A stretch of 63,854 nt of DNA, counting the filler, from Dugesia japonica (Eukaryota), in NCBI GenBank assembly GCA_001938525.1. It is 6 parts of 6 records of this genome, joined end to end, with 100 filler letters (N's around TTAATTAATTAA, not from the genome) between each part and the next. Parts side by side here need not be neighbours in the genome. Positions count along the whole stretch, not along the records: positions 29,764 to 39,471 come from MQRL01640275.1; 5 more parts are not named here. One strand, given 5' to 3'. The notes beneath the pieces were generated by a model, which saw only the letters and a program-made list of their open reading frames with translations, did no database searches and was not told the origin of the DNA. The translations under genes were made by a program, and so were the position numbers. Positions 5,201-54,440 of this stretch are shown here, in pieces (positions within the stretch are counted from its first letter, which is position 1; each line of letters starts with the position of its first letter).

Positions 5201-5383
5201 ATGTCTGGTGAATTAAGGAAGTCACTGAAGGTGAGATTGAAGCAACGTGAGGCCTCTCGATTAAGGCAGCTATTGGTCCATCTTCTTACCCGAGGTAAGG
5301 TAGAACACCCCGACGAAACCGATTTAGCTTGTTTCGTCGAAATGTTCCCACTACTACTTCAGGTGGATCTTGACGAAGCGTGA
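5201..5383 (+). CDS. Cassette ORF M1, 60-aa unknown protein
   Basis: Intact ORF with a homolog at 31133-31315 sharing HLLTxGxxEHPDETDLxCFVEMFP; most third codon positions differ between copies. AATAAA downstream at ~5426. Confidence 0.75.
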   Translation: MSGELRKSLKVRLKQREASRLRQLLVHLLTRGKVEHPDETDLACFVEMFPLLLQVDLDEA

Positions 5384-5574
5384 CAACCCTCCTGTGAAAT
5401 ATAATAACTGTCATGCTTTGATTTAAATAAAGTCGAATAAATAGTTTAATCATCACTCTGAATTTATTTTATCGTAATTAGTTTATTCTTTTGTTATTTT
5501 ATTATAAATTATTTTCATCATAATTCAGTAAATTTAAATATTGATCATAACTGTTGAAAAATAATTACAGTAGG

Positions 5575-5985
5575 ATGGAGTACAAATGGTAGGTACTATT
5601 GGACAGGCGCACAAGACGTACGGTGTTTAAGAAATACACCAACCCCTATGACCGTAATGCGGGCATCCTGACTGACTATTCGAATCTGTCTAGTGAAGAT
5701 GCGGATAATGAGAGAGAATGAGCTGCTACTGAGTGCCAAGCTTTTTATCAATGTAGCGGCCCCGATCCCACCCGAGAGATGCTTCACTGTGTCACCATCA
5801 TAGATCCAGTAACTAACCAGATTACTAGTACGTGGCGGGACGGTCCTGCGTTGGTGCCCGTGTGGGTCGTCCACCTACCACGGACTATTAGATTCTCCGC
5901 AGATATAGGAAACACCTTTTGGAACCTAAGGAATATCGCTAGCGGAGGTGAATCGGAAAATAACGCGCCAAAAAATGAAGCGTAA
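5575..5985 (+). pseudogene. Cassette ORF M2, unknown protein with two in-frame stops
   Basis: MEYKW*VLLDRRT...NPYDRNAGILTDYSNL aligns with MESIWERTVDR...NPYNQDAGILVDR*NL from 31433. Confidence 0.6.
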
Positions 5986-6202
5986 AGTCAATGAATGATT
6001 TTTTCATTTTTACTACTTGTTGGTTGTTGTAAAAAAATAAAAATTGTGTTAAGAAATTTTATCTTCCCTTTCTTTTAACTGAGAAGGTCCACTTAATTGA
6101 TTCCGTAATTCTGTTAGTTGATCTTTTTATATTAATTGTTTCAAATTAGTCGAAGTTTCGCTTGTTAATTAACCACAAATTTCTACAATGTATATTTTGC
6201 AG

Positions 6203-6561
6203 TGCATTCCTCACTGAACAGAACCACGGCTCCGATCAAAAAGATGAGGGATGCCAGCGAGGACCAGGAAATGACNTGGGACCTCTATCGCCTCACGAAG
6301 CGTCGCTGGGAGGCAAAGGTGGCNACCTCAAATAGTAAAGTACTTCGGTATAAGAAAAAATGCATCGCCTTTAAAAAGGAAGCCAAAGCCTCACACACTC
6401 GAGAACGAGTGTGAAAGGGGCAATTTGAGTTCTTCGCAGAAATTATCCGGTCCCACCATGACCGAGAGAATAGACTGGTCAGCGACATATTGCATCTCAA
6501 GGAGAAAATGCCTCTCAAACCCTTGATGATAGATAAAAGCACCCAAACTCCACAACCGTAG
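6203..6561 (+). pseudogene. Cassette ORF M3, coiled-coil-like protein ending in DKSTQT (one TGA at a Trp position)
   Basis: Homologous over its full length to 31965-32323 (HSSLNR...EMTWDLYRL...RYKKKC...PLMIDKxTQT). Begins at acceptor ttttgcag|TG. Confidence 0.75.
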
Positions 6562-6724
6562 ATACCCGGTATTATATGACTATGAAAATAAACATTTCTT
6601 TATGTTATTGTGACTTTGTTTTCATTAGTCTATTCCTTTTAAGTTAAAATAAAATTGTTGTCATCAAATATTAGGACTAATATAGTTCATTGATGTTTTA
6701 TCTTTAATATTTTACTCGTTTCAG

Positions 6725-7086
6725 TGCCATGTATCCAGTTGCCCCGTAGTCTAAAACGATGCCACCGACTCATCCAGAAACTGCTACTCGAGAGACACTT
6801 TAAACGCTAATCTGAGCGTGCTTTGCTCTATCATTTAACGCAACGAAATAGACTGATAAAGCGGTTGGACGTGATTGTAAAGAAACAAAAGGACTTAGCT
6901 GAACACACAAAACAGCTCCTACAGCACAAGGTCGAATTTTTGAAGCGTTACATTGCCGACCTGTCACGCCAACTGGGCAATGCTGCATATCTCAACTGGG
7001 ACGATAATGGCGACTCAGTGTTGTTCGACTTTATACCAGAAGAGCTGACCCAGTGGTTAGACCTGGGTGCTCTCGATGATTTGTGA
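6725..7086 (+). pseudogene. Cassette ORF M4, basic region + leucine-rich coiled coil + acidic/aromatic tail (one stop)
   Basis: Three homologous copies (here, 10986-11368 -, 32444-32839 +) share KQxDLA...K(V/I)(E/D)F...I(A/S)DLSxQ(L/I)GN and QWLDx. Begins at tttcag|TG. Confidence 0.75.
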
Positions 7087-7142
7087 ATTATAAAATAATA
7101 TACAGTATTGATAGTAGTTCTTGTTCATTTTATTATTTTTTT

Positions 7143-7329
7143 CGTGAAAGTAAGGAACCCGAATTAAAGGTGTACAAGTGAGCACCTCCCGTAAAGGGTG
7201 AGGGTCAACCACTCTGCGCTGAATATCTAACCTAGGGGCGTTAGATTAAATTCTTGAGAGAGTACCCCTGAGAACCGTTTTTATCCGGCCAGCATCGTTT
7301 TCACCATGAACTCAGGTGGGACACCAACA
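7143..7329 (+). ncRNA. Putative structured RNA, copy A (unrecognised family)
   Basis: One of four homologous copies. Stems GGTGTA/TGCGCT, TCTAAC/GTTAGA and CCTGAG/CTCAGG covary with the other copies. Invariant TAAATTCTTGA. Confidence 0.6.
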
Positions 7330-7681
7330 GAATAATTATAGTAATTATTTGATTATAAAATGCCTGAATTTAAAAGGACTTTAGTTGATCAGGTAAATGA
7401 TGGTTTGAAAAACGAAAATAATTCAAACATGAAATGTAAAAAGCTAACTTAAAGAACAAGAAACAAAGAAAGAAGAATTTAATAGAGAATAAGATACAGA
7501 AGAAGCATACGAAGAGGAAGCATATAACATAGGAACAGGTAAAGAAACAATTGAGTGAGTTCAAAAAACTATCAAAAAGCTTTGGATAGAAAATTTCAAC
7601 TGTTAATGGAAAATGGATCAATGTGACTGTTTGTATTTAAATAAACATTTTGAAATTTAAACAAAGTCTTCGTTTTTTAAT

Positions 7682-7969
7682 ATATTGCTAAAGGTTCCAA
7701 AAGAATCGACAAGGAAATTGTTACAGTTATTTTCAACATTTGTCATAGATGATTTGCTAGATATTATTGTAAATATTATTCGTGGTAATTTAATTATCAG
7801 TAAAAAGAAATAAACTAGAACTAAGCGTCATAAAAGGTCACTGCTTTCAATTGTANATACAAAGAATAAGAAATTGATGAGAAAAATAATATATAAACAA
7901 AAGGGAGGATTCCTTTCTGTTCTATTGCCAATCGCATTAACAGCTTTAGGACTAATAAATTTCACATAA
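7682..7969 (+). pseudogene. Polinton/adintovirus small basic protein with adenovirus pX-like C-terminus
   Basis: ...NIIRGNLIISKKK*...KRHKRSL...YKQKGGFLSVLLPIALTALG resembles the QxGG|FLxxLL protein found upstream of Polinton integrases (xGG|x protease-site-like). Confidence 0.65.
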
Positions 7970-8079
7970 ACAATGGGTAACTTACAATCATTATCAACAA
8001 TTTATTTCAAATTTATATCAAATTGTTGTAATGGACAAAATCAAACCAATATGAACAGACTCAAAAAATCCAGTAGGGT

Positions 8080-9066
8080 TCAACGGAGTGGAAAAACTAT
8101 CGAAAGCAAAAGACAATTTAAAGCGAGACAAGAAAGCGGTTATCAAACCAGTTAGCGTACAGTCTGAACAAGCCATTGTTTAAAAGATTCCCAACAAGAC
8201 CGTATAAAACCTTTGGTATTGATGATTTATGGCAAATGGATTTGATGGAAATGATANCTTATTCGAGAATTAATAAAGGATACAAGTATATTTTGTCATG
8301 CGTTGATGTATTTAGTAGATTTGCAAGAGTTGTACTAATAAAATCAAATTCTGCTAATGATATGGAAGCTGCAATGAAATCAATTTTCAAAGACAGGCAT
8401 CCTGATAATTTGCAAACGGATTTGGAAAAAGAATTTTATAATTAAAAAGTCAAAAATATTATTAATCATCTGAAGATTAATCATTTTTCTGTATTTCTAC
8501 AATAGAAAGCAGCATATGTTGAAAGATTTAATCGAACATTGAGAGATGCATTGAAAATGTATTTTGCATGCACTGGTAATAAAACTTGGATACACGTTTT
8601 ATTGAAAGTAATCGATATTTATAATCATTCAAGTCACAGAGAATAAAATGGAGCAAGACCTGTTGATGTATCATCCTATAATTCAATGAAATTATGGCTT
8701 TTGAGACAACAACCAAAAGCAATCAAGAAACCAAAATATAAAATTGGTGATCATGTTAGAATCTCAAAGATATCAGCTTCACCATTCATCAAGAATTTCG
8801 ATAGCAATTGAAATGATGAAGTATTTTATAAATCAAATATCAATACCAAACAGAATCCATTTATGTATGTGATTAAAGATCATTAAGAAAATATCATTGT
8901 TGGAAAATTCTATGAACAAGAATTACAAGTTATTCCACAACCAACAGTATTTAAAGTAGAAAATATTATCAGATCAAGGGGAATGGGAAAGTATAAACAA
9001 TTATATTTAAAGTAGCATGGATATGAAAAACCAAGTTGGATATCAGCATCTCAAGTAGTAATTTAA
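8080..9066 (+). pseudogene. Polinton/Maverick retroviral-type (rve) integrase with C-terminal chromodomain, degraded
   Basis: IDDLWQMDLMEM, GYKYILSCVDVFSRFA, LQTDLEKEFYN, KAAYVERFNRTL, KYKIGDHVRISK, GKFYEQELQ, LK*HGYEKPSWI; several stops and frameshifts. Confidence 0.9.
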
Positions 9067-9085
9067 ACTAAGAAGAAAAATAAAA

Positions 9086-10097
9086 ATGAGCAAAACGAAT
9101 AATTTCTATCCACCATTACCGAGTAATAGTTTTCCACGTATTCATCCTGATAATAACGCAAGTAGATTCTGTGTTGCACTTGAAAATCCCATTTACTTGA
9201 ATGAACAATGGGAAGTAGCCTTGATGGACTTTACCTTTATATATTCTGCCTTTCAATTATATAACAAACGATACATCCAATATGTAACAGGTAATATCAT
9301 GAGAGTAATGTAGAAATAATAATCAATAACAAAGAAAAATCATTGATGGTTCATGATGTTGGTTTTGTGGTGATTGATGAAAGATCATTGTCAATCNNNN
9401 NNNNNNNNNNNNNNNATGTTGTAATATTTGACAATTAAAAAGATGCTAAATAATTTAGATTTAATACTTTAATGAATAATATAGAATCGGATACTACCAT
9501 ACAATATCGAAACTTTAAAAACGATGATTCAATTGATATTGTGAAAATGAAATAAGTATTTTCAATAGAAACTAATAAATTCATATCTTTAAAAAATGAA
9601 TATTACATATTNNNNNNNNNNNNNNNNNNNNNNNNNNNNNNNNNNNNNNNNNNNNNNNNNNNNNNNNNNNNNNNNNNNNNNNNNNNNNNNNNNNNNNNNN
9701 NNNNNNNNNNNNNNNNNNNNNNNNNNNNNNNNNNNNNNNNNNNNNNNNNNNNNNNNNNNNNNNNNNNNNNNNNNNNNNNNNNNNNNNTTAATTCATTGGT
9801 TTTAAAAATCCAAAATTAATCACTAATCCACATAAAATGTTCATCTATAGTAAAATTGTTGAACCTATAGTTGTTGGTGGTGTTAATGTTCCTTTGTTGA
9901 AATCTGTATGGTTAGAGAATTGTGAAGATGATCAAGTAGCTCAGATTATAATCAAGAATCCAATGTATTTACCAGTTGCCACTTCATGTATAAACAATAT
10001 AAAAATAAATATTCAAGGAGATAGTGGAGAATTAATAAACTTTGCTAAAGACTCAAAAACTCATTTAACTCTACATTTTCGAAAAGTAAATGTCTAA
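9086..10097 (+). pseudogene. Polinton minor capsid (penton-like) protein, degraded and gapped
   Basis: N-terminal FYPPLPSNS...NNASRF...IYLNEQWEVAL and C-terminal FIYSKIVEPIVVGGVNVPLLK...NPMYLPV...GELINF...LTLHFR are the conserved ends of the Polinton minor capsid protein. Confidence 0.75.
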
Positions 10098-10386
10098 TCC
10101 CAATATTATTAAACTTTATAGTATCAGCCAAGCTGGTGGAGAATTGCCGTACTTTGTAGGAAAACAGTTTGTATATAGATGNTTGAAAANAACTGGTGGA
10201 TTTGCTTTGCCTATTCTTAGACGTGTTGTAGCTATTGGTATGAAAACAGCACATGATGTTACAAAAAATAAAACAAATATTTTACAGTCACTCAAAACAA
10301 ATGCTATGACTGAATTCAAAGAATTTATGGCTTCTCCAAAAGTAACGAAAATAATGCCAAAGGACAACACCACAAAAGAATGTTGA
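10090..10386 (+). CDS. Polinton small core-like protein (QxGGxLPxFxG family), probably degraded
   Basis: SQAGGELPYFVGKQF...FALPILRRV directly after the minor capsid gene, the usual position in Polintons. Confidence 0.6.
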   Translation: MSNPNIIKLYSISQAGGELPYFVGKQFVYRXLKXTGGFALPILRRVVAIGMKTAHDVTKNKTNILQSLKTNAMTEFKEFMASPKVTKIMPKDNTTKEC

Positions 10387-10741: not shown

Positions 10742-10926
10742 TGTTGTGGTTCTACCTGAGTTAGATGGTGAGAAACACGGCTGAGGGAAAACAGCCCTCA
10801 GGGAAACTTTTTCAAGAATTTAACCCACCGTCCCTAAGGTAGGTTTTCAGTTCATGGTGGTTGACCTCTCTCTTAATGGGAGGTTCACACTCATAAACCT
10901 TTGTACTCGGGTTCATTATTTCCCCT
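10742..10926 (-). ncRNA. Putative structured RNA, copy B
   Basis: Reverse complement reads GGGGAAATAATGAACCCGAGTACAAAGGTTTATG...CCTACC/GGTGGG...TAAATTCTTGA...CCTGAG GGCTG/CAGCC CTCAGG...CAACA. Lies downstream of the minus-strand M4. Confidence 0.6.
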
Positions 10927-11368: not shown

Positions 11369-11400
11369 CTAAAGAAAAGAATTATTAATGATATTCGAAG

Positions 11401-14809: not shown

Positions 14810-15038
14810 TTATAATAATTATTATTATTGTTATTAATNNNNNNNNNNNNNNNNNNNNNNNNNNNNNNNNNNNNNNNNNNNNNNNNNNNNNNNNNNNNNN
14901 NNNNNNNNNNNNNNNNNNNNNNNNNNNNNNNNNNNNNNNNNNNNNNNNNNNNNNNNNNNNNNNNNNNNNNNNNNNNNNNNNNNNNAATCCCAAGAGAAAA
15001 AAGAACAATACAAAATAGCTTAAAAAATAATAATAATG

Positions 15039-15071
<33 letters not shown>

Positions 15072-15121
15072 NNNNNNNNNNNNNNNNNNNNNNNNNNNNN
15101 NNNNNNNNNNNNNNNNNNNNN

Positions 15122-15155
<34 letters not shown>

Positions 15156-15316
15156 TTAATACATAATAATATAAAATAATATATAATATAATAAAATTAT
15201 TAATAATATAATAATAATATGATTAATAATATAATAAAATAAAATATAATAAAATTAAATATAATAATAAAAAACATAATATAATAAAATAATATATTAA
15301 TAATAATAATAATTAT
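14810..15316. repeat. (AAT)n microsatellite / low-complexity tract
   Basis: Direct reading; partly gapped. Confidence 0.9.
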
Positions 15317-15975
15317 AAAATGAATGTGACTTCTTCTCTTTCAGAAATAAGAGAAGTCACCATCGTATAATGAGATATCAATAAAAAACATAGTATCATA
15401 AATCAAATAGTTATTGAAATAAATAAAACACTTCTAATATTCAAAATGATTACGCAGTAATTCTCAGAGATCAATTTTACATTGTACAAATTAAGATGAA
15501 TGAGAACTGATTGAAATGATCGTATTGTGATATGATGTAAATATTTGTACAAAAGACGTCTGTAGAAAACATACACGTATACACATGAGTTGAAAAGGTT
15601 TGGTTCATTTTGTTTAACTCGGTCTACCCAAGAATTTTTCCAACCTCGAAACCAAAAACTCATCTAAATCATGTCTAAAAATGGTTCATATTCACTGGTT
15701 TATTTTAGATTATTTTAAAGGGATCAACAGAAACTCTATCGTTAAATATTGCATGATTAGTCAATATATTATCATTGAATTTCGCTAACGAGTTCTGGAT
15801 TTCTTTGCTACATTGTCAGTTCCATAGATGGACCATATTTATTAATAAGACAAATGTATATTCTAGCAAAATCATTGAATTAATGGTTTAATAATTTACT
15901 TCACCACATTTTATTAATTTTTTAAAATAAATCGTTTGTTTTATTAATTTAGCATATTTCTTTGTTAATGAATTA

Positions 15976-22837: not shown

Positions 22838-29391
<6,554 letters not shown>

Positions 29392-29595
29392 AACCGACAA
29401 TACTTTTAAATACAATTTATTTCTCTAGTATATATTATTGAACATTATTTTTGTGAAATGATTTTATAGCACTGGATTTGCTTTATTCTTTGTTATTGCG
29501 ATGTTATTTTATTAAATAACATGTTTTGTATTTTCTAAGTTAATTTGATTTAAAAAATTTATATGTTTATAATAATTTCATTTATTAAGTAACAA

Positions 29596-31132: not shown

Positions 31133-31315
31133 ATGCCATCGGAATTATATTGTATTCTACGTTGGGTAAAAGAGCAACGCCCAGCTAGTCGATCCAAACA
31201 ATTAATAGCGCACCTACTGACCAAGGGGGAAATTGAGCATCCAGACGAAACGGATCTGAGATGCTTTGTAGAAATGTTTCCCTTTATGGCAGAAATCGAA
31301 CTAAACGCAGAATAA
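31133..31315 (+). CDS. Cassette ORF M1, second copy (60 aa)
   Basis: Same length as, and homologous to, 5201-5383; preceded by tttttag|ctcATG. Confidence 0.75.
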   Translation: MPSELYCILRWVKEQRPASRSKQLIAHLLTKGEIEHPDETDLRCFVEMFPFMAEIELNAE

Positions 31316-31432
31316 GTCATGCTGTTTGTAGCATTGTCATGAAAGTAAATTACATGCGCCATCTCGTTGACGTTTTTATTGTTTATGGAAAATTTGGTTT
31401 TATTCTAATCATTCTCATACTTTAATTAGGAA

Positions 31433-31780
31433 ATGGAATCTATTTGGGAACGCACGGTGGATCGACTTTCCGGCGGCACCACAATCCCTACAATCAAGAT
31501 GCCGGGATCCTGGTAGATAGATAAAATCTACCCCCCTCGAAGCAACTGTTGCTCGTATTCAGAGCTTTGGAGAGCAACTAAACTATCGCCAGGGGAATGG
31601 TCCTGAGCGTAACCACGCCACTCCATTCCGGTACCAACCTCCAGCTCCACCACCAGTATTTTAGGCCTTTATAGCTAAAATGCTCTGGGGTGTTAGGGAA
31701 CCCTCCGGCCTGGCGGATTAGNAAAATACAGTTCCCCCTGATACTAAAAATNCCGACTCTTGATGTTATCATAATCGTAA
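31433..31780 (+). pseudogene. Cassette ORF M2, second copy (frameshifted)
   Basis: NPYNQDAGILVDR*NL motif; occupies the same position between M1 and M3. Confidence 0.55.
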
Positions 31781-31964
31781 AATGTGTGTTTCTTTGAATA
31801 AATAAGTGTCTTAAGTAGTGTTAAAATACTCTCTAGCACTTTGGGAGGATTCCCTTTAATACTGTTATTCAGTGTTTTTATGCTTTAAATAAAGTTGAAC
31901 AGATATTAGTAAATTAGTCAGCAAGTCGATGAAGAGAAATGATTCTTATGATGTTTTCTTTTAG

Positions 31965-32323
31965 TGCATTCATCGTTAAATCGTCCCCCAGCTCCAACCA
32001 AGAAAATTCGAGACACGAGCGAGGACCGCGAAATGACGTGGGACCTCTACCGACTCGCCAAACGATGTCTGGAGGCGGACGTGGCCACTGCGAATAGTAA
32101 AGCGCTCCGTTATAAGAAAAAATGTGTTCTTTTCAAAAAGGAAGCGGAGGCCTCCCATTTACAGGAGCGCACTTGGAAAAAACAAGTGGAATCTTTTTCA
32201 GAGATTATNNNNNNNNNNNNNNNNNNNNNNNNNNNNNNNNNNNNNNNNATTTTGATTCTCCGGGAGAAAATCCCCCTCGAGCCGCTAATGATCGACAAAG
32301 GTACTCAGACGAGCCGCTCCTAG
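31965..32323 (+). CDS. Cassette ORF M3, second copy, ending in DKGTQTSRS
   Basis: Open apart from an N gap; begins at ttcttttag|TG; homologous to 6203-6561. Confidence 0.75.
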
Positions 32324-32443
32324 CTTGATATTGCATTATTGTTTGAATTAATAAATTATTTAATTGTATGAAATTCCTCTGTTACTTGTTTTTCCCGAGT
32401 CATCGACTAAGTATTCATTAATTTGATTGTATTTTTTCTTTAG

Positions 32444-32839
32444 TGNNNNNNNNNNNNNNNNNNNNNNNNNNNNNNNNNNNNNNNNNNNNNNNNNNNNNNN
32501 NNNNNNNNNNNNNNNNNNNNNNNNNNNNNNNNNNNNNNNNNNNNNNNNNNNNNNNNNNNNNNNNNNNNNNNNNNNNNNNNNNNNNNNGTAAGCAAAACGA
32601 CTTGGCAACCCAAACCAAAGCCCTAGAGGCAGAGAACAGGAAATTACTGTTACGAAAAATAGATTTTTTTATTTTTTTTTAATTTTATTTTTTTTAGATT
32701 TTTTCATATCTGACCTCTCCACACAGATTGGGAATCCGCCTGGATTCATTGGAACGATGACGACGATGTCGCCGCCTTCAATTTCACAATAGACGACCCA
32801 GATCAATGGCTAGACCCTAGCATATTAAATGATCTATAA
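32444..32839 (+). pseudogene. Cassette ORF M4, third copy (gapped, T-rich insertion)
   Basis: KQNDLATQTKALEAENRKLLLRKIDF...ISDLSTQIGN...QWLDPSILNDL*; begins at ttctttag|TG. Confidence 0.7.
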
Positions 32840-32896: not shown

Positions 32897-33085
32897 GGGA
32901 AAACTATCGAATCCGAATACAAAGGTTTATGGGTGTGCACCTCCCATTAGGAGAGAGGTCAACCGCCATAAACTGAATACCTACCCTAAGGGCGGTAGAT
33001 TAAATTCTTGAACGGGTTCCCCTGAGGGCTGCTTTTTTCCCCAGCCACATTTTTATTACCATCCGACTCAGGTGGAACCCCAACA
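32897..33085 (+). ncRNA. Putative structured RNA, copy C
   Basis: Stems GTTTATG/CATAAAC, ACCTC/GAGGT, CTACC/GGTAG, GGGTTCC-CCTGAG/CTCAGG-GGAACCC, GGCTG/CAGCC. Confidence 0.65.
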
Positions 33086-33099
33086 AATGTAAATTAAGC

Positions 33100-33290
33100 C
33101 AAAATCTGAAAAAAGGCAACAACTTTTGAGTGGTATGTCCAAAATCGTTGGGACAAGAAAAACGGTGAAAGACGAGGATACCTTCAGGAGAGTCAGAAAA
33201 AAGGTTGGAAGATCAAGCCAATAACGTAACAGGAAAACAAATTAAAACCAGAAACAAGAAATCACAAGACATCTAATTTTAGACGNCAAT
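33100..33290 (+). pseudogene. Family M5 remnant between RNA copies C and D
   Basis: WKIKPIT*QENKLK matches WEIGPITTQEIKIK of the ORF at 2624. Confidence 0.45.
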
Positions 33291-33418
33291 AAAACACAAA
33301 GGAAGTTTTGAAAAATTTAGAAATCGAACTATGAATAGGTCACATTTTAGCACCGGATCGAATTATTCCCACTCGACCCGGACATTAATTCATAATTACT
33401 GTTTATTTGGTTAATAAT

Positions 33419-33605
33419 GGGAAAAGTAATGAACCCGAAATAAAGGTATACGAGTGAGCACTTCAAGTATACGTTGGAAGTCAACAGCTTTGTACCGATA
33501 GCCTAATCAGAGACATTAGGTAAATTCTTGAATGGGTCCCCTGAGGGCTGTCTTTTCCCCAGCCACGTTTTTTCTTCTTCTACAAACTCAGTTAGGACCC
33601 CAACA
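33419..33605 (+). ncRNA. Putative structured RNA, copy D (most divergent)
   Basis: Stems GGTATA/TGTACC, ACTTC/GAAGT, CCTAAT/ATTAGG, GGGTCC/GGACCC, GGCTG/CAGCC; 5' GGGAAAAG complementary to loop CTTTTCCC. Confidence 0.65.
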
Positions 33606-33855: not shown

Positions 33856-33950
33856 CGAAAGCCAAATATTAAAAAATTGTGAATGGGAAAGCCAAATATT
33901 AACAAATTGTGAATGGGAAAGCCAAAATATTAACAAATTGTGAATGGGAA
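33856..33950. repeat. Near-perfect 30-31 bp tandem repeat, 3 copies
   Basis: gaaagccaaatattaacaaattgtgaatgg x3. Confidence 0.9.
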
Positions 33951-35371
33951 ATGACAGTGATAATAAAGTTTACATTTCAAAAATCAAAATCCTAAAACCC
34001 CNACATAATTAATAGATTTATATTTATTCATATAGAAACCATTACAGAAAAATTTCTTCATAACTAGCATGACGGATATTAATTTATGATTTCCCCTCAT
34101 TAATATATTATCATAACATTACCAGCTCTAGGATTTAGTATTCATCAATGACGTTATTATCATAATTTCTCGGATGTAATAAACATACAATAAATCATTG
34201 GCTTTCTTTGGATATCCTTACAACGATCTTTTAATTTCCATGAATTATATCATGTGAAAAGATGTCCAGTTCCACAGTCTCTCTTTTCTCTTGTAGTTTA
34301 TCTTGTCCANTTTGCTTATATTTTCCTTTATCATTTTGAATCTAGGAACCGCAAGTGTTTGCACCTTTATTTCAAGGTTCAGTGAATCTTGGCGGTAAAC
34401 TGATTGTTAATTTGATAAAACAATAGCTCTAATTTGAAACATCAATTTGACAAAAACTTTTTGCGTTCTTACATTAACTTCTTTTATTGTCTTTCTAATT
34501 ACGGTAAAACAGTAACTCTTGATAATATCTAAAATTTCGCAGTTATTGTCAGTTCCCACGATATTGGTTTTGTTATAATTAAAGCTATTCAGTTTTCAAT
34601 AAATTATCACTTCATCGGTATATCTATTAATTTTCTGTGCAGCATTCTTTGATCTACATTCGTGAAGACTTAATTTAATTTTTTTTAAAAATTAAGGACA
34701 CCACACAACGCCAATTCAATATTCATACGTTTAATCTAAAATTGATAGAAAATAGTCCTTACTATTTATCCTGAATTGAATATATATCAATATTTTATAA
34801 ATTAGTACAAATTATTTTTTGAAATAAAAATATTATACTAAACGAATTATTACAGAAAATTTTTATAATTCTTTTTAACCAGAATATTACATTATAGAAT
34901 ATTTCATTTAATAAGACCTTTTACTGTTATTTTACAGTCGACCTAAGGTTTTTAAATGTCAATTAAAACCTATTTAATGCGTCATTAAATACCGAATTAT
35001 TCTTGTACATTTTCGTAGGTAATTTTAGAAAATGTAGCGTATTAAACATCATCGATATAACTTGCAGTTTTTATTAACTTATATGTTAACAATCCAGAAA
35101 ATTCATTATAAAATTTAATTTCAATGATAATATCCAAGAATTAGTTTTTTATTAGAACGATTAAATAAAATAAAATAATTCAATAATGAATTAATTCTGT
35201 TTCAAATTTATTAACAATCTAAAATCAGATATAATAGCTACCAAAAAAAAACAACCTCATTATGGAAAACAAAATAAGTTAATAAATATAAATCTAGAAA
35301 TAAGGCTCTGAATAACTATAATATTAATTTAGTAAGAAAAATAAGATATTTCCAAAACATTTTATTCACAT

Positions 35372-35766
35372 TTATTCAGCAACTGGTTCTGAAGCAGTAA
35401 CTTCAAAGTAAACAGATGGTTCAATAGTGATGGAATTAATTTTTTGAACAATATCCTTTGCACCAGTTAAATCCAAAACACGTTTATGAATTTTCATTTG
35501 AAGACGATCCCAAGTTTTTGAACCTTCACCGCATGGAGTTTTACGAACAGTGAGACTTAATTTCTATAAAGATAACAGTTGGAAACATGAAAAATATTAA
35601 ATACTGTAGTTGGCATACGAACTGGACCATGAACTTTAATATTCTTTTGTTTAGCCAAATTAACTAAGTCACTCACTACTTTCTCTAATGGTTTCACTTC
35701 TTTAGATGTAAGAGTAATTCTAATTCTGTCAACTTGTGACACCTCTTCAACTTTCTTATCAGACAT
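35372..35766 (-). CDS. RPS20: 40S ribosomal protein S20 (uS10); exons 35766-35605 and 35563-35372
   Basis: RIRITLTS...GPVRMPTT|[32 protein letters not shown]; 41-nt intron at 35564-35604; probable 5'-UTR intron at 35767-35807 ending right before the ATG. Confidence 0.97.
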
Positions 35767-39571: not shown

Positions 39572-42500
39572 AGTCAATAAATTATCATATTATGTAGTGG
39601 CATCAGCTAATTACCGCTTGATATCGAAAAGGATGGATACATAAAGAATTAACCGTCAGAACATTCGACTTCCAGATAGGCCAGTGGCATCAGGGCCAGC
39701 TCCTGTTGTTAATGATTCAGAAAGAAATTCTCAAATTCAATATCAAAAGCAAATCCAGAGAGACTGACCGACAACATCCATGAAGTTCATTACCAGAAAG
39801 TTATGTAATGAATAAAAAGATTTTCCACCTCCAAAAGAATAAATTTTGAGGTCAGGTATGTGTTTTTGTTGTGGTTCAAATGGACATTTCCGCAATAATT
39901 GTCCTCAAAGAGATTGTTTAATTTGTTTAAAATCGGAACATAATTTTAGAAGTCATGGACGGCTTTGGAAATATCACTACGGAAACGATGTTAGATGTAT
40001 TGCGAATGAAACTAATAAAAAAGTTGCAATAGATGTAATTTGCGATGAATAGGATGAAGTAGAGCATGATGTGAACTATTTAAACGATAAGGACTTCACT
40101 GTTCCAATTTCATCTGTGGAATCAAGACAAGTAAGAACAAATCAAAATCAAAATTTAAACGTAGATGACGAGATGTATGTGAAGAGCGATGTAAGAATTT
40201 CAAGGGTGGTTAAAGTGAATAGTAAAGGTGTGGAGATGTTATGTGGCACAGGAACATCGATTTCAGTAAGGAATATGAATGCTTGTTTCCATTGTAAAAT
40301 TAAGAAATAAAATTGAGTGGAGCATTTTCGAGAGAAGCAGTTAAATGCTTAGGCATCTGAAAAGTGAAAATTGAGTATCATAATATGACTGAAACTGTCA
40401 ATTTGGTGTTAGTACAGAGTATAAGCCCAGAGTTCATTGGATAAATAAACATGCTTAAAGTTTTTAATATCCAATTAAAGATGATTGGATTAATCGAGTC
40501 AGATAATGTAATGAATGATATTTCTGATGATGATCATTTAAAGATCACTATGGACGTTTCCAAACCAAGAGTTGACACCTTGAAAATATTGTTAACGCGT
40601 TTCAATTCGATATTCATGGCACATACGCTTGATATGGGTAAAACATACCTAGTTAAACCTCCTATTCATGCAACGGGAAATCTTGTCTTACAACAGCTAA
40701 GACGACAACCGGTGCATCTAGAAGTCAAGATTATTGAAATGATTCAAACATTTGTCAAAAGCGGTATTATAAAAGAATGCAGTAGCCCACGGAACTAACC
40801 TATGGTGATTATTAACAAAAATAATGGAGCTATTCGTATGTGTCAGGATTTCAGATTATTGAAGGAACTAACTGATAAATTTTCTTTTCTTATGTTATTC
40901 GATCATCTTAGTCAGTGTACCATATTCTCAACACTAAATATAAGTCAAGCGTATTTTCAAGTCGGACTAGAAGAGGAGGATAAAATTGAATCCGCGTTTT
41001 TTACAAAGAAATGTCAGTACTTTTATGATCGCATGCCATTCAGCCTATCAACCGCTCCAGCTACATTTCAAAATTTAATGCATATAATTTTGTTGGATAT
41101 TCTATTTAAAGTCATTGTACTTTATATCAATGATATTCTAATCTTTGCGAAAAATCGGAAGGAACATGATCGTATTCTATCAAAAGTATTTCACAGAATT
41201 TAAGCATCTGATCTTAAAGTAAATACAGCCAAATGTAAACTGTATCAGGAAGAGCTCGTGTTTCTGGGTCATACAATAAANNNNNNNNNNNNNNNNNNNN
41301 NNNNNNNNNNNNNNNNNNNNNNNNTTAATGCTGGAATTCCGAAATGTACTAAATAGTTGCGATCTTTTCTTGGAATGGCAAACTATTACAGTAAATTTAT
41401 AAAAAAGTTTTCGCAACTTGATACACCTTTTTATGCTGCTACCGAAGGTCCAAAGCACGAAATAATGTGGACAAAGGAATCCGAGACGAGTTTCGAGTAA
41501 ATCAAGGAAGCTCTTTGTAACTCTCTAATATATGGGTATCCTAATTCAGAAGGTCAATTCATTCTGGATACTGATGCCAGTTTTTCGGGAATTGGTGTGG
41601 TACTGAACCAATCACAAAACGTTATGGAAGTCGAAATAGTAAATGGATCAAGGTTATAAAAAAAGAATATTCCGTGACAAAGAAGGAGTTATTGGCTCTT
41701 TATAAATTTATTCAATATTTTTGGCATTATCTTTATGGGAAAATTTTTATCGCGAGAACCGATGACAAAGCTTTAGACTTTAAAGAATTCGAGATAAGCA
41801 ATTACACCGCAGTTGCAGACTTGTATAAACAAGTTATCAGAATATGATTTCGTATTGAAGTATAAGAAAAATTACCATCATTACAATGCTGATAGTAAGT
41901 CAAGACTGACGTCCAATTATTTTTCACAATGCCAGACCGAACATGAAAATGCGAAGTGTAAATCGTCTAAGGTAAAATATTTAAATGTTATGAACGTTTT
42001 CAGAAGTGATTCACATAATTACATAAAAGAAAGTTAAAAAGATGAATTATTTAAGGAAAGCAAAATTCATTTGATGGACAAAACTGTTAAGTTATCAGAA
42101 ACGGTAAAAGCCTCCGAGTATTTTAAATATTTGCTGTTAATTTGCTTAACTAATTTTGAGAACGAAATTCATAAAGATTTATGCCATGTTCAAATAACAA
42201 AATCAACAAAATATGTATCTGATTAATTTTTCTGGCAGAATATGATTACATATATTCAGAATGCTAACAGAGAACGTCATTTTTGTATGCACAGGGCGGT
42301 TAGTAGTGATAAAGTTAAGGAAAAGTATATACCAAGATACGTAGTTAACCCGATGGAAGAAATTGTGATAGATGCTACATATATCGATCACAGGAAATCC
42401 TATAAAAAATACATGATTGTNATAATTGATCAATTCAGCAAGTTAGTCAGCCTTTATGTAGATAAAAATTAAAACAGAAACACAATGCAAATTGCGTTGT

Positions 42501-43330
42501 TAAATAACTGGAATTACAAATATGGAAAACTTAAACGCATTGTTTCTGATAGACGAAGAATGTTTGAAGGAAATGTTTTACAAGAGTTTGCTTCAAGATT
42601 ACATATTTCATGGATATTTACATCTCCCCATGAGCATAAATCAAATGATTGAGCAAAACGCGCAATTAAAATTGTCAGAGATATGATAGTAACTTACTTG
42701 AAATCTGGAGGAGAGGAGAAGTGTTGAAATGAAATCCTTCCAAAAGTGGAGTTTTCATTCAATAGCACGATATCAAAGGCGAAAGGATTCTCTTCGATAG
42801 AAGCAATCTATGAAAGGAAAATTAATATTCATTCAACGAAAGAATTCAAGAGTAACCGTAAAGAAGTTCTGGAAAAGACCGTGAATCTTGAGAGGAGGGA
42901 GAAACAAATGAGCAACCTGTTCTGTTTGTTGCTTTCAATCAAGCAATGAGGAATCCATGACCCTTCTTTATTCACTTTGCCTAATTGATGAAAATGAATC
43001 GCAATGTTGATTTTAGAGATCCGTAAGCGATCTTCAAATTCCCGTGTTTTAAGCTTTGGGTCTTCATTGATCAATTCACTTTATTATACACTTTGCCTAT
43101 TTGATGCAAATTAATCGTAACCTAAACGAAGCTTCAAAAAAAATGATGAAGTCAAGAAGTTGAAAGGGAATTTAAAGTAAGGGATAAAGTTCTGATGGGC
43201 CTTTCGAAATTATGGAATTCATATCACCGCATCAAGCAAGATTGCAGAATTCAGAAGGTTAGAAATACAGACGTATGGAGTGGCTGAAAAGATGTTAAAA
43301 ATCTGAAAGAGACGGAGAACTTGGAAATTG
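39572..43330 (+). mobile_element. Ty3/gypsy LTR retrotransposon, degraded (gag zinc knuckles, PR, RT, RNase H, IN)
   Basis: CFCCGSNGHFRNNC; RMCQDFRLL; RMPFSLSTAPATFQ; LYINDILIF; FILDTDASFSGIGVVL; IIDQFSK; GPFEI. Confidence 0.92.
42877..43075 (-). mobile_element. TIR-less mariner transposase fragment inserted in the gypsy integrase
   Basis: Inverted high-identity copy of ~43703-43896 (INEDPKLKT...SWIPHCL). Confidence 0.85.
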
Positions 43331-43512
43331 TTGTAACCTTGATGTTTTGTTTATATATTAAAGTGTAAATAATAAATATATTTTTGAATTTCAAGATATC
43401 AATTATAANNNNNNNNNNNNNNNNNNNNNNNNNNNNNNNNNNNNNNNNNNNNNNNNNNNNNNNNNNNNNNNNNNNNNNNNNNNNNNNNNNNNNNNNNNNN
43501 NNNNNNNNNNNN

Positions 43513-44253
43513 ATTGTTTGTTACACGAGTTAAGAAAATGATCAACTACCTTTAAAAACAATTCATCGGTTTATTCAGATTCTGGATTGTCACTGAATAA
43601 ATGTTAAAAATGGTTCCGAAACGTCAAGAGAAGAAATTTTAATCTATCTGAAAGTAGAAGAGAAAGTACTTCAAATTTGAATTACAAAACCTTTTTGACT
43701 CTTATTAACGAAGACCCAAAGCTTAAAACACCGGAATTTGAAAATCGTTTACGGGTCTCTCACATCAACATTGCGATTCATTTTCATAAATTAGGCAAAG
43801 TGAAAAAAGAATGGTCATGGATTCCTCATTGCTTGATTGAAAGCAACTAACAGAACAGGTTGTTAATTTGTTCTTCCCTCCTCTCAAGATTCACGGAAGA
43901 ATTTTTTTTAAAAAGAATGATGAAGGAAATGAAATGTGGGTGTTTATGTTAACATTAAAATAAAAAAAGGACTAACACTTGGCTAGAAGCCAATATTTAC
44001 AGACAAATCAGGACTTTATCCTCGTCAGATAATTATGTCTCTTTGGTCTGATTATTGCGGTGTCATAAACTTATGCAAAACATATCTATCACAGGAAACA
44101 TCCACTAGGTCATTGAAAAGAATTTTCACAAAGGAGTATATCAAAACCGCCCTGGAAAATTTCTTTGTATCTAAGTCATCCACTTTTTATGAAGATTTGA
44201 TCATGAATTTAGCTTTAAGATGGCAAAAGGTCATATACAGCAGTGGAAAATAA
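43513..44253 (+). mobile_element. mariner transposase remnant
   Basis: KWFRN..., SWIPHCL, IMSLWSDYCGVI, LALRWQKVI; internal deletion. Confidence 0.85.
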
Positions 44254-47031: not shown

Positions 47032-47281
47032 TAATACAGTACAAGCCAGTATACGCTGAAAACATTATCCATAAAAACAAAGTATTCTTTAATTGATTTT
47101 TCAACATTTATCTAAAAATTCATTTGCAGACAAACGTTATTAGGATCGGAAAATTTTGAATCTTTTGTCTTAGTAATTTTCAATTTATATTTTGTAATCA
47201 GCAAAAGGTCATAATCATTAAATTAATTATATAAATTAATAAAATATATAGACAAATTTATTAATGAAAAATAGACTTTAC

Positions 47282-50200
47282 TTGCGACTGAACATTAACT
47301 TTGGCTCCGTGTTCAATTAAGAAATTCACAACATCAACTTTCCCAGCTAAACAAGCAATGTGCAGAGCTGTATTCCCTTTTTTTGTTGCTGCATTTACAT
47401 CAGCATTTTTAGTTAAAAGTATTTTTACAATATCTACTAATCCTTCTTTAGAAGCGATATGCAAAGCATTCAATCCATTCTAAAATATTAATATAAAAAC
47501 CGATTTAAAGATAATATGAAATAAAAAAAATGTGGATTATCAATTAATTGAAATATATTATAGAAATATTATTGTTTTACTTTATAAGTTTTAAAATAGT
47601 CAAAATTATTTTCATTTAAAAAACTAAAATTATGATAAATTAAATCTTTGTGTCAATGAGATAAAGACAAATATCAATAATAGTATGACAACTAACGGCA
47701 TTCGCAGTGGATATATCTCCTCCATTATCGAGAAAATCAATTATTTTTTGTGTATTACCTGATCGAGCAGCTCTAAGAAAACTCTGACCACCATCCATCT
47801 AAACAATGTAAACTGATTAAATCTTTTATATAATATCAATAATGCTTAATTATATTAAATGGGAAAAAACTTAATTACTGTTTGGATATAAATAGGAAAT
47901 CAATGAAAATATTAAAAACAATTTGTGAAATAAAATCAAAATATTGTATTTCATCAATAAACCAAAAAAATTTTAATTTTAAATCCACTAAGAAAATTTT
48001 TCTTAACACCTTGCAGTATTTTATTAACTTTTTTTAATGTATTATTTGTTTTGCACTAGTTGATGAGGAAATATTATTCGGTATTACACAATGTTATGAT
48101 ATAATTTGTTATGATTGTTTAGCTGAACTATTTAAATCGTCAAAAAACATTTCCAGTTGATAAAACTCATATAACTGATATTTCTCGACACTACAATTCA
48201 AATGAAGAACCTGAAATTATATCAATTATTAATTATGAAACCTGTAGTTTCATAATGAAAATTATTGAAAATATGAAATCTATTATGACTGATATCGAAA
48301 TTTATCAAGATAAATATAAAATTATGAATTCTAAATACTATTTATAAAAATAATTTCAAATTAACTCATTTAAATTTAAATAATTATTTTAACATTGTAA
48401 TAACATTTCTTGCGATTATGTATTTAAAAGTTTAAAATATACGATATATTTCAGATCTGTTTCTTCATCTGGATCAAATCACTTTTCCTTTCATAGTTTT
48501 CTCATACTGGAGATATTTTATTAAATTTATTTATGTATTCGTTAGGGTTTTATTTTAAATTAAAACTTCATTTTAAGTAAAACGTAATTAATCAATATAT
48601 AGCAGTGAATATAAAGAATTTGTTATTAAATAATATGAGTACATAAATTATAAAGCTGTATAAAGATGTATCTATACAAATCTTGAGCAGTTGAGTAAAT
48701 CTAAAGTAATTACTAAGTGCGAATTTTAAAGACAATTACTGTAACGAAAAGAAAAATGGTATGTCACATAAATTAAAGAGTTAAGAAAGTGAAAGTTGAA
48801 ATTGAAACAGAAAATGGGCGTGGTTAAATTAAATTAAACCAAAAATTGCTGAAAGAAATTCGAATGACTGAAGAAAAAAATAATGAAAAAAAGACAAATT
48901 GGAAGAAAAATCTGAGATGAAATTTTAGTATATTTTATTATAAACAAAATCTGAAATTTTTTCTAAATTTGAAAAGAAATTTGAATAAATTTGGAAAATT
49001 GAACGAGATTTAGAATTTGAGAAAANNNGAGAAAATTGGATAAATATTGTATAAAATAAACAATAAAATGAAAACTTTCAAAATCAGCCTAAATTATAGT
49101 GTTAATTTCAAAGAAACTATTATATTGCATTCGTTAATCATGTTTCAATATTAATATCATTTCTAGTTTATTAAAGAATACAATTTTGAGTCAAAGAATT
49201 CTATAAATCTAAACATCATAATTGTTTACAAATTTTTATCTGACAATTTATGAATTTATATTTTACATACAGTTAGACCCCGTTAAGACGCGGTTCAAAA
49301 ACACACAAATTTGCTTAACACACGGTCATACTATGGCTCCCAATGTTACTAAGCAATCGATATTTATAGATTGATAAATCCAACCGTAGACGTAAGTAAG
49401 CAAAATATTATGTGAAAACAATATATACCAAATTTAAATGTATATACACTTGATATTTATTAACCAATTAGAGCCGACCAACCCTATATGAGGACGGATG
49501 AATAAAAATGTATGCATTTTTCTGAGCCATGTATGATTTTGTTCTTATCTATATAAAAAAAACGAAGACATATGTAGCCTTATTTCATCTTTCTTGAAAT
49601 CTTTTAGTGTTTTACAGTCTTTCTGGTAACGCTATTTGTTATTCATCAATTTCTCCATTAGCGTGAATGGGTTAAATATATTTCATTTACAAAATGTAAT
49701 ATAATATACAGTTTTTGTTAAATTCTTTTGTCAAACGATGTTTTCAAACTGACTTCCGTTCTGGTCCAGGCACTGCTGACAACACAAATAATAATAAAAT
49801 GGGTTTTTTAAAAATAAATTTCAATTTTTATGTATAATTTTAATACTATTCTACAATAATTCAAATTTGAAGGTTTTATGCTAAGATAATATTGATTCTA
49901 AAAAATATTATATATATATATAATGCAAAAATATCGAATTTAAAGATTTAACATAAATTGCAGTTCATATTTTTTAAAATACAGTTTATTAATTTTAATT
50001 ATACAGTATACATTTATCTGTGAAATATGAAATTAATAGAATAAAGAAACAAGTTTTCTTTAAAATTGAGTCAAGTATTCTAAATGTAAAGTCAAAATTC
50101 AAAACTTGAACTAACGTCTACTTCAGGATAAGGAGTATTATTAATTTTAAGCATTAATTGGCAGAGTTTCTAAATCCATATTCCCTAGGAAATAAATATT

Positions 50201-51529: not shown

Positions 51530-54440
51530 GGGCATTGCGACTCCTATAACGCCGCTTCTTCGACCTGTATCGCTTGTGCATTTGAATTATTATTACTATG
51601 AAAGCGATGAGGAAGAGTAATGTAATCATTTCCAATATTAAAAAAGGTGATATAATATTTTTGCATCAAATGGTTTTTTTGTTGTTGTAATCCACATTTG
51701 TAAGATTCTATTTCAAAGGTGTTGATAATCTTCTTTTGGATTATCCCGAGCATTCTCTTTCAATCTTTTTTATTTTTTGTATATATTTATCTTTATTATT
51801 GTTTTCGTTATACTATAACTTGGTGATGTATTTACCTTTAACAAAGTTGTTGTTAATTTGCTTTGGAAATCCATTGCATATGTTTCCATTATTAGCTGAG
51901 TATTGGTATTGGTTGTAATGGAACTTTAGTTTTTTTCGTGTATTCCTTTTTGTAGCTCAAATGCTAAATCCTTGACACCATTTTTTCACATCATCTTTGA
52001 TATTATCCCAATAATACTTCTGCATTACTCTTGACGTAGTTTTTCAACTCAAAAGATGTCCTTCGAGTGCTCCAGCATGGTGTTGTAAAAGTAATAACTG
52101 CTTTAAAGAATCTGGCACGACAATTACATTTTTTTCTAGGTTATTGTATATGAGCACGTTCTTGTACACTTTTATTTGGTATTTTTCTCTAGAATCATCA
52201 TTTTATTAATTACCTGTATTTTTTTATCCTTATTTTGTTCTTCTTGAAACCTTTTGGGAAATGTTCCAGTAATTACAGTTGACATAATTTCTAATATATT
52301 TATTTCTGGAATTCTGGATAGTGCATCGGCATTTTTATTTGGTTTTCTTGGTTTTTATATAATACATATGCTCATATCTCGGATATTCATCGCCCATTTG
52401 AGTATTCTACTAGATGCTTCTTTATTTTTCCATAAACCTTCTAATGGTTTATGATCGGTTCGTATAATTATTTCAGTTCTATATTAGATTGGTCTAAATT
52501 GTTTTAATGCAAATATGATAGCTAAACATACCTTCTCGATTGTTGAGTATCTCGTTTCTATTCCTTTTAACATTCTACTGCATAATCAATGATATAGTNT
52601 TTATTTTTCTCATTTTCTTGTCCGAGTACTTCTCCCGTGGCTTATCCACTTGCATTTTTCATTACTATAAATTGTTTGGTGAAGTCTGTATATCTTAATA
52701 TTGGAGCTGTCAACAATCGTTGCTTTAGTGTATCAAAGGCTTCTTGTTGTTTTGGACTCCATTTCTTTTAAGGTTTTTTGATTTTTCATCTAATTGTTCT
52801 ACAATTATAACGTTTTTACTTCCATCTTTAGTTTTCAGTCTTTTCGTTAACTCTAACAATGGTGCTGCTATCTTTGCAAGGTTTTCTACGAATTTCCTGT
52901 GATACCCTACTGAGCCATTAAATTCTTTTAGTTGTTGTACGCATTTTGGTGCTGGAAAGTCTTGAACTACTTTTACTTTTTCTGGATTTGTTTCTTATCC
53001 TTTTTATGACACAATATGTCCTAGTAATAAAACACTGTGCCCATTTACACCTTATTGGTTTTAATTTGATATTTTCTTCTCTAATTATTGATAATACATT
53101 TTCTTTATTAATTAAATGCTGTTCAAATTATGTGAATGCTATCAATATGTCATCCATGTGTACCACCACATGTTTCTACAGCTTTATCAATCTTTGGAAA
53201 GTAGCTGGTGCATTGCATAATCCAAATAGTAGTCTAACAAATTTGTATAATCCATCAATCGTGCAAAATACTATCTTTTCTCAATCTTCCTCTTGTACTG
53301 AAATTACATTTTAGCCCTTGATTGCATCAAAAATTGCAAAATACCATACATTCATTAGTTTATTGAATTGTTCATGTATTTTGGGAAATAGATGTGTATC
53401 CATTTTTGTAACTTCGTTGAGCTTTCTATAATCTATACAAATTCGAATTTCTCCATCTTTCTTTTTACTGGTACTGTTGGTGATGGCAATTGAGAGAAAC
53501 TATTTGGTATAATTCCATTTTCTTTGAGTTCTTTTATTGGTTTTTTTATCTCTGATCCTAACGCATAAAGTGCCACATATGACCGTTGTTTTATTGGTCT
53601 AACATCCCTTTTATCAATCATATATTTTATGATATTTGTTCTTCCTAAATCAAATTCATGTTTGGCAAACGCATCTTCATTTTTATCCAGCAGTTTTTGT
53701 AATTGTTGCTTTTTATTCATCTTAAGATCTTTGTACGTTATTTTTCTCCCATAATATTTCGTTTGTTTAAGTTTAATTAGTTCTGTGTCAATTGTTTTTC
53801 TAATTTTGCTTTGTTGATCTAGTATAAATTTGAATAGATCATGACTAATTAATTGACTTGCTATTTGTTCTATTTTCCCCGATCTCATTATGTTATGATA
53901 TGGCGTGTCTGAATAATTAGGTGAGAACAGTTTATTAAACTTCTGCAAGTTTGTTTTCTTTGGCTGTTCCTCAATTACAATTTCACATATCTCGTATTCA
54001 CTACCATTTTCAAATAATTTACCTAATTTTGTCCCTTTCTAAAGTTCTACATCATAGTTTAATATAATTTTCTTTTCTCATTAGTATTGTACATTTCTTT
54101 GTTTCTACACATTCGAGCATCATTGATAGATTATGTTTTACTGCTAATTTGTCGTTTGTTAAAAAAATATATGAATTATTGTTTTGTAGTTCTGTATTTA
54201 TTGGTAATATACATTCACTACATTGCTCTATTTTTATTAACTTTATCGCACTTACTTCGTTATACTCTGTTTGTAATGTTANCGGCGTCGCCATTTTCAG
54301 TGTGCTAAATCAATAACATAATCCTTTATTCTTGCAAGACAATCCATGCCCAATATGCAATTCTGTGTTCCCTTTTTGATTGCTTTAAAATGGTGTGTAT
54401 TAATTTCTTGCCCAATTGTGAGTGTCAATTATTCTTTTTT
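51530..54440 (-). mobile_element. Ty3/gypsy LTR retrotransposon, degraded
   Basis: FGLCNAPATFQR, VHMDDILI, YSTIEKVCLAIIFALKQFR, RTDHKPL, NKNADALSRIP, HHAGALEGHL on the minus strand. Confidence 0.9.

Follow-up and report, generated by a model that had tools for sequence, protein, structure and literature searches.

A candidate structured RNA element with a putative long-range pseudoknot in decayed Maverick/Polinton DNA of Dugesia japonica

Within the window, by which we mean the whole stretch of 63,854 nucleotides of Dugesia japonica DNA analysed here (AT-rich animal DNA), we observe four copies of an element of 185–189 nt that is very probably a selected RNA structure, and whose 5' border is predicted to pair with a hairpin loop some 130 nt further along. 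The explanation that we prefer, to which we give a probability of roughly 40% as a whole chain, is that a piece of read-through transcript is trimmed by the nuclease Xrn2 to a stable non-coding RNA. A wider and doubtful proposal is that Mavericks/Polintons encode a torpedo-resistant, Sm-bound small RNA of a new fold, cut from a read-through transcript and carrying a pseudoknot of 130-nt span; if true, flaviviral sfRNA would have in it a first nuclear counterpart from a DNA element, and the RNA would be a candidate means of countering piRNA silencing.

Genomic setting and extent of the element

Copies A, B and C each come after ORF4, the last of four small open reading frames on the same strand, and the distance from the ORF4 stop to the element is 59–60 nt in A and C (Table 1). 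No homologue of ORF1 or ORF4 was returned by the database searches made. The two copies of ORF1 (5201-5380 and 31133-31315; 59–60 aa) are 56% identical, and in both copies of the unit ORF3 and ORF4 open with TG directly behind an acceptor-like AG (6203, 6725, 31965, 32444). Between A and B lie an rve integrase (PF00665, E 5e-9) and a capsid-like ORF with nine relatives at 56–72% identity, one of which falls near Preplasmiviricota clusters. Since this gene pair, by which Mavericks/Polintons are recognised, is found there, the setting of the element is, as judged from sequence, decayed Maverick/Polinton DNA; among frames of at least 70 aa we recognised no pPolB, ATPase or protease, and no terminal repeats were recognised. 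The arrangement of integrase and capsid-like ORF beside the RNA element is as in Polintons, which in planarians are transcribed and piRNA-silenced, and the accessible portions of these descriptions make no mention of a structured RNA (PMC6431247, PMC8532177).

Short tandem repeats separate copies B and D from the convergent frames that they face, and A precedes co-directional genes. The repeats occupy 10437-10586 (33-bp unit) and 33857-33951 (30-bp unit), and the frame converging on D is a decayed one of about 230 codons (34050-34750, minus strand). Purine-rich stretches with short basic frames lie behind A (7357-7540) and C (33086-33418) and are mutually unalignable.

No fifth copy was found within the window by self-comparison and a covariance model, the next score being 9.6 bits against 187–197 bits for the four copies, which are themselves the training set of the model. 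Identity between copies is 71–81% across the element, compared with 50–66% in the adjoining 180 nt of ORF4 and 72% in the best coding exon, while the spacer and the 110 nt downstream agree only at the level of shuffles; D, which lies 333 nt behind C, is only 72% identical to it. Conservation starts at the first base of the 5' strand of the long-range helix, 33419 in D. Because identity within the element exceeds that of the ORF4 end and the flanks are at shuffle level, the comparison argues that the element is under selection and that its borders are sharp. The end at 33565 given by an earlier reading of the sequence alone proved too short, the element reaching about 40 nt further to 33605, and the hairpin placed at that end caps a longer stem that closes at 33587-33603.

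Table 1. Coordinates of the features discussed, counted along the window; the parts of the element are those of copy D.
Feature	Position	Strand	Remarks
Copy A	7143..7329	+	59 nt past ORF4 stop; stem 4 and long-range helix most decayed
Copy B	10742..10926	-	Behind third ORF4 copy; convergent with Polinton gene block
Copy C	32897..33085	+	Starts 60 nt past ORF4 stop, 333 nt ahead of D
Copy D, whole structured RNA element (putative)	33419..33605	+	About 187 nt
Long-range helix, 5' strand (predicted)	33419..33426	+	GGGAAAAG; register-anchored pairing
Linker	33427..33444	+	Conserved, predicted unpaired; carries GAAYCCGA and AAA
Stem 1 (predicted)	33445..33496	+	52-nt hairpin interrupted by internal loops; GUCAAC invariant; two-sided change in 4 pairs
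Stem 2 (predicted)	33502..33520	+	Purine-rich loop; 3 pairs with two-sided change
Invariant UAAAUUCUUGA	33521..33531	+	Between stems 2 and 3; Sm-site-like, or UUG pairs with terminal CAA
Stem 3 (predicted)	33533..33600	+	Lower part variable; 21–24-nt pyrimidine-rich bulge
Stem 4 (predicted)	33546..33564	+	GGCUG/CAGCC hairpin atop stem 3
Long-range helix, 3' strand (predicted)	33552..33559	+	CTTTTCCC; last 8 nt of stem-4 loop, touching the stem's 3' strand
Invariant CAACA	33601..33605	+	Conservation stops here
AATATA, listed poly(A)-signal variant	7097..7102	+	46 nt before copy A
AATAAA	10967..10972	-	46 nt before copy B
AATAAA	32850..32855	+	47 nt before copy C, then a U/GU-rich stretch; predicted ORF4 poly(A) signal
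Unit of four small ORFs ending in ORF4	5201..7086	+	Precedes copy A
Second four-ORF unit	31133-32839	+	Repeat of the 5201..7086 unit
Third copy of last ORF (ORF4)	~11400-10990	-	Precedes copy B
Decayed Maverick/Polinton block	7600..10386	+	rve integrase and capsid-like ORF, stops in both

The long-range helix and the remaining fold

The sequence-only reading had proposed that the purine run at the 5' border pairs with the loop of a GGCTG/CAGCC hairpin about 130 nt downstream, and the complementarity is present in all four copies. In D, the eight bases of the run form eight Watson-Crick pairs with the final eight bases of the 9-nt hairpin loop. There are seven pairs in C (32897-32903 with 33035-33041) and seven in A (7144-7150 with 7278-7284), of which three are G-U and one is a U-A in place of the G-C of the other copies; B has eight pairs, one of them G-U, where seven had been counted (10926-10919 with 10791-10784, minus strand). 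The hairpin itself departs from the proposed form in A, which instead has AACCG/CGGCC with two mismatches.

The register of the helix was set independently of pairing, with the 5' 8-mer ending 4 nt before GAAYCCGA and the 3' 8-mer abutting the 3' strand of stem 4. So anchored, 30 of 32 cells are paired (26 Watson-Crick and 4 G-U) and four columns contain two-sided change; pairing falls to 23–24 of 32 when the 5' window is slid by 1 nt, and among all of the anchored helices scanned this one scores highest. The pairing of each run with its own loop tops the 24 possible permutations, but by just one Watson-Crick pair over a swap of D with C, and a test in which the 3' letters are shuffled between copies yields P 0.023. 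When each copy was shuffled 1000 times, the 181–184 nt upstream of the hairpin contained a match at least as good in 0.7% of shuffles for D, 3.3% for B, 9.4% for C and 76.9% for A. Neutral simulation on synthetic helices gave P 0.002–0.012 at 12 changes and 0.08–0.18 at 6. In a GGG-aligned register every cell is paired (28/28), yet a single two-sided column is left, and for this reason three of the four two-sided columns (D and C versus B) may represent one concerted slip of both runs. The register chosen by MAFFT itself moves A by one, leaving 28 of 32 cells paired and three two-sided columns, with P 0.04–0.13 at 12 changes.

Energetically, the long-range duplex of A amounts to -2.0 kcal/mol and is outside the five best partners in that copy, and in C a segment of stem 1, which is paired inside that stem, would bind the loop more strongly (-9.5 vs -8.0). 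The stem-4 loop is 8–10 nt long across copies and unpaired in the nested ensemble of all four (probability 0.81–1.0). Given the geometry of pseudoknots, and since only 0–3 nt of linker are left within this loop, it is probable that 6–7 of the long-range pairs form rather than 8. The helix is the best-supported of the element, yet the covariation comes from four copies, with P of about 0.002–0.18 depending upon the alignment, and is suggestive; we consider it likely that the helix forms.

All copies share the same order of parts, namely the 5' helix strand, a linker of 18–19 nt, stem 1, stem 2, UAAAUUCUUGA, stem 3 with stem 4, and CAACA. Compensatory changes are seen in the long-range helix and in three of the stems (1, 2 and 4). 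The core of stem 3, CUGAG/CUCAG (33541-33545 with 33587-33591), is invariant, and pairing in the lower part of the stem is interrupted in A and B, with 20 of 28 cells paired. In the unedited MAFFT alignment, 92.3% of the 195 cells of the whole structure are paired, against at most 50% for slid partners, and there are 12 two-sided pairs as compared with 5.3 in shuffles (0 of 500 with as many), a test with the caveat that related sequences can exceed such shuffles, and all of the covariation evidence stems from four related copies. Stem 2 was taken from the consensus fold and the MAFFT-alignment test. On the gene-sense strand G-U combinations outnumber A-C ones, 16 to 7, with stem 2 excluded. 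The anchored pairing, the helix scan and the whole-structure covariation support the pseudoknot as first proposed, and the tests of the helix and of the whole structure likewise bear out the claim that this is not a simple terminator.

Single-copy folding z-scores are unremarkable and no better than shuffles (-0.45, -1.39, -1.97 and +0.72), RNAalifold assigns the lower energy to the opposite strand (-34.0 vs -29.7), and CCUGAG/CUCAGG is so nearly invariant as to be uninformative for covariation. Along with the low complexity of the runs, the ambiguity of the register and the weakness of A, these latter points would fit an account in which the stems are genuine but the long-range match has arisen only through slippage of purine and pyrimidine runs, or one in which the structure works in single-stranded DNA or as inverted sites bound by protein. 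Against that account stand the first place of own-loop pairing among the permutations, the one-strand excess of G-U and the fixed distance to a poly(A) hexamer described below, and we regard it as highly improbable.

A different partner for the stem-4 loop had also been put forward, the stem-2 loop, in competition with the 5' run as a two-state switch. The stem-2 loop is purine-rich, and in B, and only there, it is a near-second partner (-6.9 vs -8.6 kcal/mol). In any fixed register over the four copies no more than 17 of 20–24 cells are paired with it, 9 of them by Watson-Crick pairs, compared with 26 among 30 paired of 32 for the long-range helix, and in its best anchored version 12 of 23 pairs are G-U. 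We therefore reject it as a conserved switch, a function that we would call most improbable.

Two further observations concern the fold. The UUG of UAAAUUCUUGA can pair with the invariant terminal CAA in 12 of 12 cells. A hexamer resembling a poly(A) signal stands about 20 nt into the linker of D (33438-33444, AAUAAA), A (7163-7168, AUUAAA) and C (32916-32921, AAUACA), and the linker of B is without one. A pairing of GAAYCC with the 5' strand of stem 3 was discarded; it breaks in A and B and is absent from the anchored helix scan.

Candidate functions and comparison with known systems

Upstream of A, B and C, poly(A) hexamers stand at -46, -46 and -47 in an otherwise unalignable spacer (P 0.0006 in 20,000 spacer shuffles allowing any of five hexamers, the spacing test having been chosen post hoc with the data already viewed) and are followed by sequence of 47–67% U. 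These hexamers, and a gap of 10–30 nt to the cleavage site, are documented for Schmidtea in the text available (PMC5068929). D has no poly(A) hexamer within 70 nt upstream, though its long-range helix is the best of the four. The element thus goes with the end of ORF4 and not with a following gene, and it probably lies in the uncapped piece that cleavage at the poly(A) site leaves behind.

In the preferred explanation, the element would sit just 3' of the likely poly(A) site of ORF4, polymerase II would read through that site, and cleavage would take place 10–30 nt ahead of the element. Xrn2 would then trim the uncapped downstream piece as far as the long-range helix, which would clamp the 5' end and could stall the nuclease, and whose first pair is predicted to stack on stem 4. 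The RNA would persist, perhaps in complex with protein by way of the invariant, Sm-like AAUUCUUGA and the CAACA ends, and would benefit the element either by diverting the RNA defences of the host, as a decoy, or by delaying termination such that read-through continues; copy D would be a second block within the read-through RNA of C. Uncapped RNA past the poly(A) cleavage site is normally destroyed by Xrn2. In the accessible part of a source that lists the roles of Xrn2, a flaviviral pseudoknot stalls this enzyme in vitro (PMC9512700). We favour the nuclease block because a helix that opens the conserved region and would stack on stem 4 is suited to halting the enzyme there. A large share of the invariant sequence (the linker, the GUCAAC loop and UAAAUUCUUGA) is unexplained by a mere nuclease block.

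The same position behind ORF4 would suit a cis-acting 3' UTR element, for example one for export, stability or enhanced translation of the mRNAs of the four-ORF unit; the hexamer upstream would then be idle or an alternative signal. The element is always behind ORF4 and on its strand, B and D end a unit opposite a convergent gene, and D, having no upstream hexamer, would fall in a longer transcript. A poly(A) hexamer is nevertheless shared upstream and occurs at no common position downstream, and we consider such an element unlikely.

The sequence-only reading likened the element to a ribozyme, an IRES or a nuclease-resistant RNA, and it is the last of these that we retain. For an IRES or leader of the next gene, the size, the pseudoknot and a GG-rich loop do recall viral IRESs, and copy A has an AUG 31 nt on and is followed by Polinton genes of its own direction. 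The first AUGs past the element, however, are at 31, 28, 2 and 40 nt and open frames of 30, 11, 1 and 19 codons, in DNA that is unalignable between copies, and the genes met behind B and D are convergent. A lost frame might be concealed by decay; since no downstream reading frame or AUG spacing is common to the copies, this part of the earlier proposal is weak and an IRES very unlikely.

A self-cleaving ribozyme of a new class, cutting at the 5' border and speeding termination past the poly(A) site, is another candidate. HDV-like ribozymes of R2 and other retroelements are about 185 nt long, open with a 7-bp long-range helix and sit in mobile elements, with a P3/L3 hairpin before and a P1.1 GG after the 3' strand of P1. 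The element resembles them in its size, its mobile-element setting and a conservation that begins exactly at a long-range helix of 7–8 bp; it also has many invariant unpaired bases, and two of the three loci face a convergent gene. In contrast to the HDV-like class, no small P3/L3 hairpin precedes the 3' strand of the helix, no GG follows it (CAGCC or CGGCC comes directly), a J4/2 catalytic segment is absent and the first base is not fixed (G, G, A, C). The hammerhead core CUGANGA is present in 0 of 4 copies and Rfam gives no ribozyme match. With no known class matched, we think a ribozyme quite unlikely.

Of the known systems, the one closest to the nuclease block is the xrRNA/sfRNA of flaviviruses and plant RNA viruses, in which there is likewise a pseudoknot at the 5' border of a conserved viral non-coding region just past a stop codon (PMC8374639, PMC6468702, PMC9512700, as far as their accessible text goes). 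In those sources too there is a tandem second copy, and the element would similarly leave a stable RNA where 5'-to-3' decay stops short. A pseudoknot that includes the 5' border, the mark of an xrRNA, is predicted here from the 30 of 32 paired cells. Unlike xrRNAs, the element is about 187 nt long, spans 130 nt, has no three-way junction at its 5' end, and stands behind a poly(A) signal, without an Rfam match, in a DNA element whose transcription would be nuclear. The available description of known xrRNAs gives a ring of 15–16 nt around the 5' end (PMC8374639). Because no such ring is evident in the element, we do not class it as an xrRNA, and it would at best be xrRNA-like in its working.

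An snRNA-like RNA, HSUR-like or spliced-leader-like, with its start or cap at the purine run and Sm proteins bound at AAUUCUUGA, is the main rival reading, though one that can coexist with the nuclease block. Two hairpins upstream and one downstream of the invariant AAUUCUUGA reproduce the layout of flatworm SL RNAs, and the base of stem 1, 27–28 nt from the 5' border, holds an invariant AAG/GU with a host-donor-like score in B and C. Opposed to this, the canonical RAU4-6GR is present in 0 of 4 copies, as against AAUUCUUGA in 4 of 4, the spacer, being at shuffle level, shows no sign of a conserved promoter, the UUG of the Sm-like site can pair with the terminal CAA, and Rfam gives no snRNA. 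We hold this reading to be unlikely. The Sm-like site is unpaired in the consensus fold, with a single-copy unpaired probability of 0.04–0.99. Splice scores for AAG/GU and CAG/ range from -1.4 to 6.5 (donor) and from -6.4 to 1.7 (acceptor), on a matrix built from 21 collagen introns that also scores the presumed acceptors of the four-ORF unit itself low.

The HSURs of Herpesvirus saimiri are likewise small, structured, snRNA-like RNAs of a DNA virus, for which the candidate Sm site between stems offers a parallel; the element differs from them, as far as they are described in the accessible text, in having AAUUCUUGA in place of RAU4-6GR, no evident conserved promoter upstream, a poly(A) signal before it and a pseudoknot (PMC3771402, PMC6468702). 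With the SL RNAs of flatworms the element shares two hairpins, an interrupted-U Sm-like motif and one more hairpin, as well as a GU donor-like site at the first hairpin (PMC12582326, PMC3795323, in part). It differs in being inside a mobile element and, going by the available text of PMC12582326, in its length of 185–189 nt, about twice the 78–103 nt of the SL RNAs, in its AAG/GU in 4 of 4 copies where SL exons end in AUG before GU, and in a motif that ends UUGA rather than UUUGG, a partial fit to UVUUUGG. On length, donor context and motif end we rejected membership of this class; background on Sm and SL RNAs is found, to the extent accessible, in PMC4053861 and PMC3795323.

Other RNA classes were set aside by simpler means. 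A Pol III viral RNA of the VA or EBER type has no box B (GTTCRA) here and T4–T6 runs lie inside 4 of 4 copies; ARAGORN reports 0 tRNA-like genes in the window; and for group I/GIR1, RNase P, H/ACA guide and U5-like RNAs there is no Rfam match, and their motifs are absent by inspection.

Searches for relatives and other features of the window

Rfam returned 0 matches for the whole window at the gathering threshold, and at E<=10 returned 0 for C and D and four unrelated sub-threshold matches each for A and B; among the curated xrRNA, flavivirus and plant-virus models of these scans there was no match. Three pattern searches of viral contigs gave 6, 120 and 0 matches, and the best covariance-model score among 86 of these loci (the 6 and 80 of the 120) was 11.5 bits, E 0.71. 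Two pattern searches of metagenome contigs gave 0 and 0, and among these loci and contigs no homologue of the element emerged. Protein-led scans gave 0 of 178, 0 of 30, 0 of 264 and 1 of 63, the last being a contig (L127) that we take to be Polinton-like throughout positions 1-15597 from its long open polymerase-, capsid-, ATPase- and integrase-like frames, and in which the best model score is 7.8 bits, without the RNA element. No structured RNA was found in the searches made of the literature on Mavericks/Polintons, and a structured RNA of the Maverick lineage is apparently undescribed so far. Given this, and the lack of an Rfam match, the element is a candidate for a new RNA family in widespread endogenous DNA viruses. 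Were it to block Xrn2, torpedo termination would have a naturally occurring RNA obstacle, and stable uncapped RNAs could be produced with a compact tool; if it binds Sm proteins, virus-encoded snRNPs would extend beyond the herpesviruses. Its 187 nt and the four variants that occur naturally lend themselves to direct tests in vitro.

Elsewhere in the window, a long collagen-like gene occupies 23000-29400 on the plus strand, with introns of 41–47 nt in 20 of 21 calls. Behind copy D is what we take to be a ribosomal protein S20-like gene with short introns (35300-35760, minus strand), and there is presumably an ankyrin-repeat exon at 47264-47479 (minus strand). We also assume that 40445-42469 (plus) and 52728-54309 (minus) are relics of a Gypsy-like pol, and that 42879-43896 holds an inverted pair of mariner-like fragments, with arms of 193 nt that are 92% complementary.
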